Program-made: the position numbers and the translations under genes | Assembly (NCBI GenBank): GCA_947477745.1 | Contig: CANJUF010000006.1 | Coordinates: 29,424 to 93,423, forward strand | Source of the DNA: Sphingomonadaceae bacterium | GTDB taxonomy: Bacteria; Pseudomonadota; Alphaproteobacteria; Sphingomonadales; Sphingomonadaceae | Direction: 5' to 3' | DNA length: 64,000 bases | Part shown: positions 35,490 to 58,814 of the stretch, in pieces | How positions within the stretch are numbered: position 1 is the stretch's first letter | Layout: each line of letters begins with the position of its first letter | Notes under the pieces: generated by a model | What the model saw: the letters and a program-made list of their open reading frames with translations, nothing else | Databases searched by the model: none | What the model was told of the DNA's origin: nothing

Positions 35490-35591
35490 AGCGGGCTGCG
35501 TGAAATCAGCAACACTACGCCCGCTCTATATCTTTGTTGTTGCATCGTTATTCGCGAAAAACCGGTTCCCACTTTTTCGCACGATGCTCTA
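35487..35591. repeat. RIME/CIR-like double-palindrome intergenic element (MITE-like), 105 bp
   Basis: Termini TAGAGC...GCTCTA; arm 1 TAGAGCGGG/CCCGCTCTA; arm 2 contains GAAAAACCGGTTCCCACTTTTTC. Confidence 0.75.
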
Positions 35592-54826: not shown

Positions 54827-55537
54827 CTATTGCGGGACGAGATTGACCGCCGAATACTTGCCGCGTCGGTCCACCTCGATGTCGAACTCGACTCGGTCAC
54901 CCTCGTTGAGCCCGGACAGGCCGGATCGCTCGACAGCGCTGATATGGACGAAAGCGTCTGGCTGGCCGTCATCGCGGGTGATGAAGCCAAAACCCTTCAT
55001 GGCGTTGAAGAACTTGACCGTGCCGGTGGCCTTCTCGCCGGTCAGCTGACGCTGCGGCGGAGCCTCGCGCTTTTCAACCGCGATGGCTTCGCCAACGATC
55101 TGGAGGTCGCTGGCGGAAATCTTACCGCCGCGATCGACGAGCTGGAATTCCAACTCCTGTCCTTCGGCGAGCCCTTCGAGCCCGGCGCGCTCAACCGCGC
55201 TGATGTGCACGAACACATCCTCGCCGCCATCATCGCGCTGGATGAAGCCGAAGCCCTTGCCCGAATTGAAGAATTTTACGACGCCCTTGCCTTGGCCAAC
55301 GACCTGCGCGGGCATTCCGCCTCTCGCGCCGCCGCCGCCGCCAAATCCGCCGCCGGAACTACCGCCACCGCCGAATCCGCCGCCGCCGCTGCGCGGGCCG
55401 CCCCTGTCGCCGCCGCCGAACCGATCATCGCTTCCTGCGCTGCCCTGCTGACCGCCGAAGAATGGATCGAAATCGTCTTCGCCAAACCGATCACGCTTGT
55501 CGCGTCCCCTACCGCGACGCCCTCTTTCAAAACTCAT
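54827..55537 (-). CDS. Cold-shock protein with two CSD domains and a Gly/Arg-rich N-terminus
   Basis: GVVKFFNSGKGFGFI..DVFVHISA and GTVKFFNAMKGFGFI..DAFVHISA. Confidence 0.95.
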   Translation of the reverse strand: MSFERGRRGRGRDKRDRFGEDDFDPFFGGQQGSAGSDDRFGGGDRGGPRSGGGGFGGGGSSGGGFGGGGGARGGMPAQVVGQGKGVVKFFNSGKGFGFIQRDDGGEDVFVHISAVERAGLEGLAEGQELEFQLVDRGGKISASDLQIVGEAIAVEKREAPPQRQLTGEKATGTVKFFNAMKGFGFITRDDGQPDAFVHISAVERSGLSGLNEGDRVEFDIEVDRRGKYSAVNLVPQ

Positions 55538-55823
55538 CTCTGCAAACAAACCTTCGAATCGCCCCACGAAACTGGGCCGGGAAACGTGGACGAACCGCAC
55601 CCAGCCACGGGATGGAGCCGCAACAAGCAGTCGAAGCGCATCCTGACAGCCCCGCATCTACACGATTTTCCACAGGATTGCGAACACATTCGCGAATCGG
55701 CCTCCGGACGCGCCGGTTGCGCAATTTGCTTCAGTGCGCGCTAACGGGCCGCGCCTCTTGACGCGGGGCCGTATTGGCGCTTGGTGCGATCACTCAGGCA
55801 CCCGCAGCGCACAGGCCAAAGCC

Positions 55824-56271: not shown

Positions 56272-56610
56272 CTACAGCGCCTGATCGTTGGTTTCGGCAG
56301 TGCGTATCCGCATGGCCGATTGCAGATCGAAAACGAAGATCTTGCCGTCACCGATAGCCTCGGTGCTGGCGGCCTGCTGGATAGTCTCGACGATCTTGGC
56401 CGCCATCGCGTCGGTGGTCGCGATCTCGATCTTGACCTTCGGCAGCATGTTGGTGGTGTATTCCGCGCCGCGATAGATCTCGGTCTGGCCCTTTTGCCGC
56501 CCGAAACCCTTGACCTCCGAAATCGTCATTCCGGCCACGCCAGCCGCGCTGAGTGCATCGCGCACCTGCTCGAGCTTGAACGGCTTGATGATCGAAATGA
56601 TGTATTTCAT
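56272..56610 (-). CDS. P-II nitrogen regulatory protein, second GlnK-type copy
   Basis: [32 protein letters not shown]. Confidence 0.95.
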   Translation of the reverse strand: MKYIISIIKPFKLEQVRDALSAAGVAGMTISEVKGFGRQKGQTEIYRGAEYTTNMLPKVKIEIATTDAMAAKIVETIQQAASTEAIGDGKIFVFDLQSAMRIRTAETNDQAL

Positions 56611-56691: not shown

Positions 56692-56724
56692 AAAAAAGGG
56701 GCCGAAGCATTTCTGCCTCGGCCC
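56692..56724 (-). terminator. Rho-independent terminator of the glnK-amtB transcript
   Basis: GGGCCGAGGCA-GAAA-TGCTTCGGCCC followed by CTTTTTT. Confidence 0.85.
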
Positions 56725-56810
56725 GTTGAGTCGTGTGTTCGCAGGAGGAACATCGGATGGCGGGGTGGGGTGGGAGGAGAGGAGGAAACCCCGCCCCCGC
56801 CAAACTCGTT
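56692..56810 (-). ncRNA. Candidate anti-SD (CCUCC-loop) small RNA, amtB 3'-derived
   Basis: Hairpin with loop UUCCUCCUCUCCUCCC (56759-56801), hairpin with loop CUCCUGC (56736-56752), then the terminator. Confidence 0.45.
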
Positions 56811-56837
56811 AAGTCATTTTCTGGTCGCGTCGCGGAT

Positions 56838-56871
56838 AGCGAAAACCGGTTCCCACTTTTCGCGCGAAGCT
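56838..56871. repeat. Single-arm copy of the RIME/CIR-like repeat
   Basis: GCGAAAACCGGTTCCCACTTTTCGC matches arm 2 of 35487-35591; lies immediately after the amtB stop. Confidence 0.7.
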
Positions 56872-56874
56872 CCC

Positions 56875-58404
56875 TTAGGAGTTGTATGCCCTTTCGCCGT
56901 GGCTGGTGAGATCGAGGCCCTGCTGCTCGTCTTCGGCCGAGGGGCGCAGGCCCATCGTCTTGTCGATGATGAAGAACAGGACCGCAGAGCCGATACCCGA
57001 CCACAGCAGCGTGACGACCACGGCCTTGATCTGAGTGATCACCTGGCCGCTGATGCTGTAGGCATCTGCGTCGAAACCTGCCGGGAAGACGGTGTAGTCG
57101 AAGTATCCCTGACCGCCGAGCGAAGGCGCCGCGACGATGCCGGTGGCGATTGCACCGACGATGCCGCCGATGCAGTGGACGCCGAACACGTCGAGGCTGT
57201 CGTCATAGCCGAGCTTCGGCTTGATCGTGGCCACGAACAGGTAGCACAGCGGCGATACGACAAAGCCGAGGGCGATCGCGGTCATCGGCGCGGCAAAGCC
57301 CGAAGCCGGGGTCACCGCGACCAGTCCCGCAACCGCACCGGTTACGGCGCCAAGCAGCGAAGGCTTGCCGTGGTGGATCTGTTCGACCAGAGCCCACGAC
57401 ACCGCAGCGGCACAGGTGCAGACCATCGTGTTGATGAAGGCAACCGCGGTCACGCCGTTGGCTTCAAGGTTGGAACCGGCATTGAAGCCGAACCAGCCAA
57501 CCCACAGCAGGCTCGCGCCGATCATCGTCATCACCAGCGAGTGCGGCGGCATCGGTTCCTTGGGATACCCGTTACGCTTGCCGATCATCAGGCAGCCGAC
57601 CAGGCCAGCGATACCTGCGTTGATGTGAACAACGGTGCCGCCGGCAAAGTCCAGCGCGCCCCATGCCCACATCATGCCGGCGTCAGTCGGCGCATCGGGA
57701 AGGAAGTCCGGACCTGCCCAGTACCACACCATGTGCGCGATCGGGTAATAGACCACGAACGACCACAGCACGACGAAGATCAGCAGCGAGGAGAACTTGA
57801 TGCGTTCGGCGAATGCGCCGACGATCAGCGCCGGAGTGATCATCGCGAAGGTCATCTGGAACACCACGAAGCTGAGCTCGGGCAAATAGACGTTGTTGCT
57901 GAAGGTCGCGGCAAGGGTGGTGTTGTCCACGCCCGCCAGCAGCGCCTTGGAAAGGCCGCCGATGAAGTGGTTGTCGCCGCCGCTGGTGAAGGCCAGCGAA
58001 TAACCGGCGACGCACCACAGCAGGCCCGTCACCGAAACGATCATGAACACCTGCATGAGCAGGCTGAGCATGTTCTTGGCGCGCACAAGGCCGCCGTAGA
58101 ACAGAGCCAGCGCCGGGATCGACATCATCAGCACCAGCGCGGAGCAGACCAGCATCCAGGCGGTGTCGCCCTTGTCGACCATGCCGGCCATCTGCTCGAG
58201 AGTAGGCGCCTTGATCATCGTCGTCGCTGCTTCAACAGCAGCAGCGGTGGCCTCGGGTGCGGGTGCGGGGGCGGTCGGTGCGGCCGCAGCAGTGGCTGCC
58301 GCTGCTCCGGTGGCGACTACAGCCGCCTTTTGTGCGAAGGCGGCTGTCGCGGCGAAGAGCGTAGTGCCCAGTGCGCCGGCGCCGCAGATCATCTTTCGGA
58401 TCAT
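56875..58404 (-). CDS. amtB: Ammonium transporter
   Basis: GDTAWMLVCSALVLMM.IPALALFYGG, FQMTFA, ALDFAGGTVVH, WVGWFGFNAGS, DVFGVH. Confidence 0.97.
   Translation of the reverse strand: MIRKMICGAGALGTTLFAATAAFAQKAAVVATGAAAATAAAAPTAPAPAPEATAAAVEAATTMIKAPTLEQMAGMVDKGDTAWMLVCSALVLMMSIPALALFYGGLVRAKNMLSLLMQVFMIVSVTGLLWCVAGYSLAFTSGGDNHFIGGLSKALLAGVDNTTLAATFSNNVYLPELSFVVFQMTFAMITPALIVGAFAERIKFSSLLIFVVLWSFVVYYPIAHMVWYWAGPDFLPDAPTDAGMMWAWGALDFAGGTVVHINAGIAGLVGCLMIGKRNGYPKEPMPPHSLVMTMIGASLLWVGWFGFNAGSNLEANGVTAVAFINTMVCTCAAAVSWALVEQIHHGKPSLLGAVTGAVAGLVAVTPASGFAAPMTAIALGFVVSPLCYLFVATIKPKLGYDDSLDVFGVHCIGGIVGAIATGIVAAPSLGGQGYFDYTVFPAGFDADAYSISGQVITQIKAVVVTLLWSGIGSAVLFFIIDKTMGLRPSAEDEQQGLDLTSHGERAYNS

Positions 58405-58433: not shown

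Positions 58434-58814
<381 letters not shown>

Follow-up and report, generated by a model that had tools for sequence, protein, structure and literature searches.

A conserved structured RNA element with predicted anti-Shine-Dalgarno function at the 3' end of the sphingomonad glnK-amtB mRNA

The glnK-amtB mRNA of sphingomonads ends in an RNA element that is real, well conserved, and absent from RNA catalogues. Its predicted function is probably that of a regulatory RNA linked to nitrogen starvation, most likely a SuhB-like 3'UTR regulatory RNA wired to nitrogen limitation. With moderate confidence, we propose that the last ~120 nt of this mRNA constitute a conserved, structured anti-Shine-Dalgarno (anti-SD) regulatory module, coupled to nitrogen limitation and predicted to act in trans.

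Sphingomonads are important degraders, and are abundant oligotrophs of freshwater and sea. If the proposal is correct, the universal ammonium-uptake operon carries a family-wide, nitrogen-linked riboregulator, through which a connection from nitrogen limitation to post-transcriptional control can be tested directly. The genetically tractable strains N. aromaticivorans DSM 12444 and S. granuli TFA carry the element or close relatives of it. The element would also exemplify how the 3' end of an mRNA can capture a modular sRNA scaffold of the Alphaproteobacteria. A new Rfam family could be seeded from the alignment and covariance model described below.

Locus and anatomy of the element

The window (the whole stretch analysed, 64,000 nucleotides from a Sphingomonadaceae bacterium) carries the operon on its minus strand. 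The first gene encodes a GlnK-type PII protein (58434-58772; NCBIfam P-II family, E = 1e-46), and the second the AmtB ammonium transporter (56875-58404; TIGR00836, 426.8 bits versus a 343.3-bit cut-off). The amtB gene runs from an ATG at 58404, a start read from the sequence, to a TAA at 56877-56875. Upstream of glnK lies a sigma54 (-24/-12) promoter, TGGCACACCCCTTGC (58835-58821, minus strand), which matches TGGCAC-N5-TTGC exactly and is the single such occurrence in the window. The initial annotation had called this promoter, and the relatives bear it out: the same pattern stands 40-75 nt upstream of glnK in all 79 relatives with a readable upstream region. This argues that the parent glnK-amtB transcript is sigma54-dependent throughout the family. 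General knowledge of such operons suggests that the promoter depends on NtrC as well.

The amtB stop codon is separated by 264 non-coding bases from a second PII gene (56610-56272). In this spacer the initial annotation described a candidate small RNA of 183 nt: a repeat arm, an AU-rich stretch, two hairpins, and a terminator. All of these features are present on the minus strand after the amtB stop, and the description of the first 185 spacer bases is accurate. The extent of the RNA required revision, however. The two hairpins (SL1 and SL2) and the terminator are conserved, and together form a unit of ~120 nt (56809-56692); the repeat arm and the AU-rich stretch belong to a REP-like insertion.

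SL1 (56802-56758, minus strand) is a GC-rich hairpin with an 18-nt pyrimidine-only loop. Its parts are the 5' arm UGGCGGGGGCGGGG (56802-56789), the loop UUUCCUCCUCUCCUCCCA (56788-56771), and the 3' arm CCCCACCCCGCCA (56770-56758); compensatory changes affect 11 of its 12 pairs in a 48-sequence alignment. SL2 (56752-56736, minus strand), UGUUC-CUCCUGC-GAACA, is a short hairpin with the central sequence UUCCUCCUG, recovered in both of the alignments described below (A1 and A2). Within it lies the 15-mer GUUCCUCCUGCGAAC (56751-56737), which is invariant family-wide in both alignments. A terminator scan identified the intrinsic terminator (56724-56692, minus strand), shared by amtB and the element: an 11-bp stem (56724-56699) with a GAAA-type loop, and a run of six U residues (56697-56692). 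A 201-nt stretch folds at -86.9 kcal/mol (z = -4.3 versus shuffles). The element is single-copy in its own genome, where the covariance model R1 (see below) scores it at 109.7 bits and the next match at 14.9; the R1 search found no paralogues there.

A small antisense ORF opposite the element (in the window, a Shine-Dalgarno sequence, an ATG, and 50 codons) was considered and rejected: it is not kept in relatives, and the G-U pairs fit the amtB strand only.

The REP-like repeat occupies the junction between the amtB stop codon and the element (56874-56810, minus strand) and comprises an inverted-repeat arm, GCGCGAAAAGUGGGAACCGGUUUUCGC, followed by the AU-rich stretch. It occurs at least 19 times in the genome and in many copies in relatives. 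In a BLAST comparison of the spacer with 40 related genomes, the first ~63 bases were dispersed, and the remaining ~120 matched once in almost all genomes of the genus. The repeat is missing from this site in the closest relative (L002, whose AmtB is 97% identical); metatranscriptome contig X22 record 9, from a relative, lacks it too, jumping exactly over 56812-56874. These absences indicate a recent insertion, outside the conserved RNA.

The repeat itself is a nested palindrome, (A)GAGCATCGCGCGAAAAAGTGGGAACCGGTTTTTCGC...GCGATGCGAC, found in many sphingomonad genomes and with a further copy near 35558-35576 of the window. It gives a weak, partial match to Rfam BASRCI408 (the Brucella "sRNA" CI408) at model positions 351-410; that model may thus contain a copy of a widespread alphaproteobacterial REP-like element.

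Two neighbouring genes deserve mention. The second PII gene (56272-56610, minus strand), behind the amtB terminator, encodes a protein 80% identical to GlnK and has its own upstream region, CATTTTGCTAGCA...GGTGATCCGGCG, common to the window and L002. A PII gene occupies the position downstream of the element in 17 of 101 loci; unrelated, varying genes do so in the others. Farther along, a minus-strand gene (54827-55657) encodes a 276-residue protein in which residues 124-182 and 209-273 form cold-shock domains. A GC-rich repeat in the gene, with a 9-bp period (55317-55431), suggests a glycine-rich tract between the two domains.

Conservation, covariation, and distribution

Two alignments underlie the analysis. 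A1 is an independent MAFFT alignment of 19 copies, from which covariance model R1 was built; A2 is a family-spanning alignment of 48 sequences fitted to the model. RNAalifold applied to A1 returned three helices with compensatory changes in 11 pairs. In A2, 95% of cells are paired and 23 of the 28 pairs show compensatory changes, counts that lean towards the structure through the fitting. None of 500 shuffles of A2 reached the observed values, and slid-partner controls were paired at 34-56%. Both alignments give the same structural picture.

The three helices differ in how they vary. In the terminator, 9 of 10 pairs covary (A2). Upstream of it lies the invariant core, GUUCCUCCUGCG(A/G)AC, followed by a short A/C-rich spacer. 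The closing pair of SL2 covaries (UA in 14 sequences, CG in 13, GC in 7), and one of its U-A pairs becomes U-G in six sequences; these changes support a hairpin of 5 bp closed over the loop CUCCUGC. The inner four of its pairs hardly vary, which points to constraint on the sequence as much as on the structure.

SL1 is the variable part. In roughly 90% of loci its loop is a pyrimidine-only tract of 9-21 nt (resembling CUCCUCUCC), and of the 113 named loci among the matches listed from a genome scan, 102 have a CU-rich loop. The remaining ~10% of loci (Sphingobium and others) have a short SL1 loop without CU content, although the stem still covaries; one genome lacks SL1 entirely. The large loop therefore appears to be dispensable. 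Also among the matches listed, CUCC is absent from the 60 nt preceding SL2, SL1 included, in 11 of 113 relatives. The initial annotation had staked its proposal on conservation of CCUCC loops in relatives. CU-rich anti-SD loops are indeed conserved, universally so for SL2, whereas the large CU-rich loop of SL1 is lacking in ~10% of family members.

Position is conserved along with structure. At all 19 loci checked by BLAST, the ~120-base match lies directly 3' of the amtB stop; in relatives SL1 starts 5-20 nt past that codon. R1 detects the element in 171 of 173 high-quality Novosphingobium genomes, and in 148 of 201 genomes representing 89 of 112 genera of the GTDB family Sphingomonadaceae. 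At each of the best 29 family loci the element directly follows amtB, even where that gene is a paralogue of about 30, 50, or 75% identity, and two genomes with tandem amtB operons carry two copies of the element.

A scan of 185,579 species genomes with the exact pattern GCCWNNCNNNGTTCCTCCTGCGAAC found at least 119 loci. Nearly all of the matches listed are labelled as sphingomonads (Novosphingobium, Erythrobacter, Altererythrobacter, Qipengyuania, Sphingobium, Parasphingorhabdus, Croceicoccus, and others), with a few metagenome-assembled genomes (MAGs) bearing a broad or discordant label. Of the 114 evaluable named loci among the matches listed, 113 have the motif at a distance of 40-170 nt past an amtB stop. 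Two MAGs, one labelled Actinomycetes (L083) and one Acetobacteraceae (L129), contain this sphingomonad-specific motif, in L129 behind an amtB gene 67% identical to that of the window; both contigs probably are mis-binned sphingomonad DNA.

In other families of the order, R1 returned only matches of 23-31 bits, none adjoining amtB. The weak matches in L182, L184, L188, and L189 are hairpins with long C/U-rich loops (for example CUCCAACCCUCCCCCUCCCCCCC) accompanied by terminators, and may represent further sRNA candidates of the anti-SD type.

Transcription and kinship with known RNAs

Four stranded RNA-seq runs of N. aromaticivorans (2026; raw reads, with coded conditions) cover the locus, as placed in the genome of strain DSM 12444. 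The libraries are of the standard fragment type, from which RNAs of ~120 nt are lost. In runs X53 and X50, coverage of the amtB strand is continuous from the coding sequence across both hairpins, SL1 and SL2, and reaches to ~7 nt short of the terminator stem; from there on it is zero until the 5' ends of the next gene, at ~2195-2208. This pattern indicates that the element is transcribed as the tail of the amtB mRNA, and that the terminator is efficient. A search for RNA runs of the lake MAG to which the window belongs yielded only fragments of relatives; among these, metatranscriptome contigs likewise join the amtB coding sequence to the element. Flanked by a stop codon on one side and the message's own terminator on the other, and sharing its transcription with the ORF, the element has the location expected of a 3'UTR-embedded regulatory sRNA.

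Processing is another matter. The depth of amtB coverage differs 3-10 fold between runs and is highest in X51, where none of ~21 fragments at the coding sequence's end enters the element, and seven end at the last base before the stop codon. This sharp 3' end could reflect a cut between the mRNA and the element. In the same libraries, however, ends pile up in a similar way 18 nt upstream of a suhB gene's terminator hairpin, which makes a priming or structure artefact possible. (Logan contigs of older RNA runs are long and flat in depth, and as such unable to show processing.)

The same reads bear on one N. aromaticivorans suhB copy (L222:1350-1750, copy at 1501-1577), where coverage is unbroken from the upstream gene and ends at 1527/1528. 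Either this copy, too, may be transcribed as a 3'UTR tail, or transcription of the upstream gene may run on into it.

No Rfam 15 family passes its gathering threshold in the window. Permissive searches gave sub-threshold matches to suhB, ar14, and ar35 only. Against suhB/MmgR (RF00519, threshold 41 bits), the window copy scores 15.5 bits and relatives 40.2, 31.9, and 28.8; against alpha-r14 (RF02344, threshold 58.8 bits), the window copy scores 20.7 and the highest of 20 relatives 36.7. Against the suhB model, the same genome's true suhB copies, at other sites, reach 43.3 and 42.4 bits. The window copy of the element and all relatives scored fall below the suhB/MmgR threshold.

Membership in the alpha-r14 or cuckoo RNAs, which the initial annotation had cited as a precedent, does not hold up. 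Both these RNAs (NfeR1, CcsR1-4) and the element contain several hairpins with anti-SD loops of the CCUCC type followed by a terminator, and the ar14 model aligns to the element over its full length, but its second hairpin finds no match. Besides the score, the motif CCUCCUCCC occurs in neither the SL1 loop UUUCCUCCUCUCCUCCCA nor the SL2 loop CUCCUGC, whereas cuckoo RNAs are defined by two to four adjacent hairpins with CCUCCUCCC in each loop (PMC4615179). The members surveyed belong to the Rhizobiales, the Rhodobacteraceae, and Polymorphum only, with no sphingomonads among them (PMC4615179). NfeR1, an alpha-r14 RNA, forms a feedback loop with NtrBC and silences through its anti-SD motifs (PMC10746234).

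Among catalogued RNAs, the suhB/MmgR module comes nearest to the element. In both, a 5' hairpin is followed by a pyrimidine motif, G-UU(U)CCUCC, by a spacer that contains ACU, and by a terminator of the GGGCCG type, and the suhB/MmgR model (1-77) aligns end to end with the elements of relatives. Variants of the element with a short SL1 (hairpin, G-UUCCUCC, ACU spacer, terminator) look most like suhB. Three differences stand out: suhB/MmgR presents GUUUCCUCCCU single-stranded between its small 5' hairpin and its terminator, whereas the element, built in the same order, has GUUCCUCCUGCGAAC with hairpin potential, in which the extra UGCGAAC makes the motif a hairpin; SL1 usually is much larger; and suhB is a stand-alone gene with its own promoter, whereas the element has none and is fixed to the amtB 3' end.

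Genomes that bear the element contain two to four true suhB genes elsewhere (four in N. aromaticivorans), none of which R1 detects. The genome of the window has three suhB/MmgR genes, C20:18557-18632 (plus strand), C1:202537-202613 (minus strand), and C62:975-1054 (minus strand), two of them above threshold and the third just below. The two true copies share an upstream promoter-like motif, TTTTCGCAYTTGCA...CATAT, and their seed, AUCCUCUCCCAAACU, differs from that of the element.

Studies of these relatives offer precedents. The suhB module is a reusable building block that accepts variable 5' hairpins (del Val et al., PMC3346310). MmgR of Sinorhizobium meliloti, activated by NtrC and bearing an anti-SD motif, keeps PHB accumulation down (PMC7143759). 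In Sphingopyxis granuli TFA, the sphingomonad studied for its sRNAs, SuhB is to date the sole sRNA to have been characterised; it has its own LysR-activated promoter and, with Hfq, represses thnR and phbB at their ribosome-binding sites (bioRxiv 10.64898/2025.12.09.693200). Our search of the literature, including the supplements of the SuhB preprint, found no description of an amtB-associated regulatory RNA in sphingomonads, nor of an amtB-borne one in other organisms.

Location in a 3'UTR has parallels as well. CcsR1-4 lie in the 3'UTR of a small ORF. The enterobacterial 3'UTR sRNAs (GlnZ from glnA; CpxQ; SdhX) share the promoter and terminator of their parent mRNAs, so their expression mirrors that of the operon. 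Like the element, these RNAs reside in the 3'UTR of a regulated mRNA, but there is no homology in sequence or structure. Seeds in those enterobacterial examples are single-stranded; the candidate seeds of the element, by comparison, lie in hairpin loops.

Predicted mechanism and competing explanations

The proposed mechanism runs as follows. The module begins with a 5' hairpin that varies and in most cases bears a long loop of C and U only; then come the small hairpin formed by GUUCCUCCUGCGAAC, a short A/C-rich spacer, and the terminator of the operon. There is no room for a promoter of its own, so it should be made only when the sigma54-dependent (presumably NtrC-activated) glnK promoter fires, that is, during nitrogen limitation. 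Its CU-rich motifs complement SD sequences; most likely the module would pair with the ribosome-binding regions of target mRNAs, probably with the help of Hfq, and repress their translation, by analogy with the SuhB/MmgR, AbcR, and alpha-r14 sRNAs found in other Alphaproteobacteria. The active form may be part of the full-length mRNA, or a ~120-nt RNA after endonucleolytic release. In both cases other pathways would respond to nitrogen starvation; by analogy, genes for carbon storage (PHB) make a plausible target class. What has been observed is the structure with its conservation, the fixed place behind amtB, the sigma54 promoter, co-transcription, and efficient termination; NtrC dependence, base pairing in trans, the involvement of Hfq, processing, and the identity of targets are inferences.

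A stronger form of the proposal, which we regard as unlikely, has the SuhB-like anti-SD module hard-wired into the NtrC/sigma54 glnK-amtB transcript, so that each burst of amtB expression would deliver a translational repressor with UCCUCCU in an invariant hairpin. If so, the element could act as a nitrogen-starvation throttle on many mRNAs with strong SD sequences, including carbon-storage genes. With SL1 only 5-20 nt behind the stop codon, ribosomes that terminate on amtB might also control whether the module folds.

Searches for targets of a trans-acting module gave little to single out. In its own genome, the perfect complement of the 15-mer occurs only in the element itself, and 10- and 11-mer complements of it touch just two start regions, neither related to nitrogen; the SL1 loop has no extended mRNA complement there. 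A whole-genome duplex scan of start regions was discarded, since GC-rich noise and false internal starts dominate it, and indicated generic SD-type pairing only. In the same genome, the phbB leader carries AGGAGAGG, to which the SL1 loop is complementary; the examples of SuhB and MmgR make phbB a lead as a possible target. Several points count against the trans model: no discrete small RNA was seen in the fragment libraries, which lose RNAs of this size; pairing searches yield no outstanding target; pairing predicted with the glnK and amtB start regions barely exceeds the background; the large SL1 loop is dispensable; and invariance over 15 nt exceeds what a short anti-SD seed needs. That invariance could reflect a protein-binding site instead.

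The foremost competing explanation, possible though on the unlikely side, is that the element works purely in cis, protecting the mRNA from 3' exonucleases or folding its CU motifs onto the glnK or amtB ribosome-binding site, with no targets in trans. It would account well for an element that is never found away from amtB, that was duplicated along with amtB in the tandem-operon genomes, and whose SL1 is near enough to the stop codon to be melted by terminating ribosomes. Complementarity points in the same direction in one clade: amtB start regions of the Novosphingobium type, ACAGGAGG(G)AA, are complementary to UUCCUCCUG over up to 9 nt, and 19% of amtB start regions fall within the best 5% of the genome background. 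Other amtB clades (UGAGGGGUA, AAGGGGG) lack this complementarity, however, yet SL2 is invariant there too. Predicted pairing to the glnK and amtB start regions (-11.4 and -11.7 kcal/mol, against a background of -9.4 +/- 3.3) is only slightly better than that background, with a mean advantage of ~0.6 standard deviations. Autoregulation of glnK and amtB by pairing was rejected as weak and clade-specific. Nor would plain stabilising hairpins need an invariant 15-mer or a pyrimidine-only loop.

Decidedly less probable is that the element binds protein or serves as a decoy, with SL2 as a site for Hfq, a protein of the ProQ/FinO type, a cold-shock protein, or another factor, or as a mimic of the 3' end of 16S rRNA. 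In nitrogen-starved cells, such an RNA would titrate the bound factor, or SD-bearing mRNAs generally. Fifteen nucleotides invariant over ~90 genera, between stems that vary freely, are what a binding site would predict, and the lack of an extended mRNA complement in the same genome fits as well. The loop sequence UCCUCCU also is presumably equivalent to the core of the 16S anti-SD, which would suit a mimic. But no candidate protein is linked to the locus, where downstream genes vary, and the papers cited above describe base pairing as the mode of action of the related RNAs SuhB, MmgR, and ar14.

Very improbable is an independent sRNA gene, with its own promoter inside the amtB 3' end and adjacent to amtB by coincidence. 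The true suhB genes of the same genomes do have promoters of their own (preprint 10.64898/2025.12.09.693200), and in X51, the run with the highest amtB depth, no amtB fragment continues into the element. Against this, the element begins 5-20 nt past the stop codon, and the conserved ...GAACACGGCGAGCGCGCCTACAACTAC TGA end of amtB contains no sigma70- or sigma54-like motif. Moreover, the X53 and X50 reads pass continuously from the coding sequence into the element, with no pile-up of molecule starts at its 5' edge.

That the element is merely the amtB terminator with a neutral conserved flank is scarcely credible: the terminator is canonical and clearly used, but the non-coding stretch remains recognisable while AmtB identity drops to 30-50%, and the two helices upstream of the terminator show compensatory changes, together with the invariant 15-mer and the pyrimidine-only loop.
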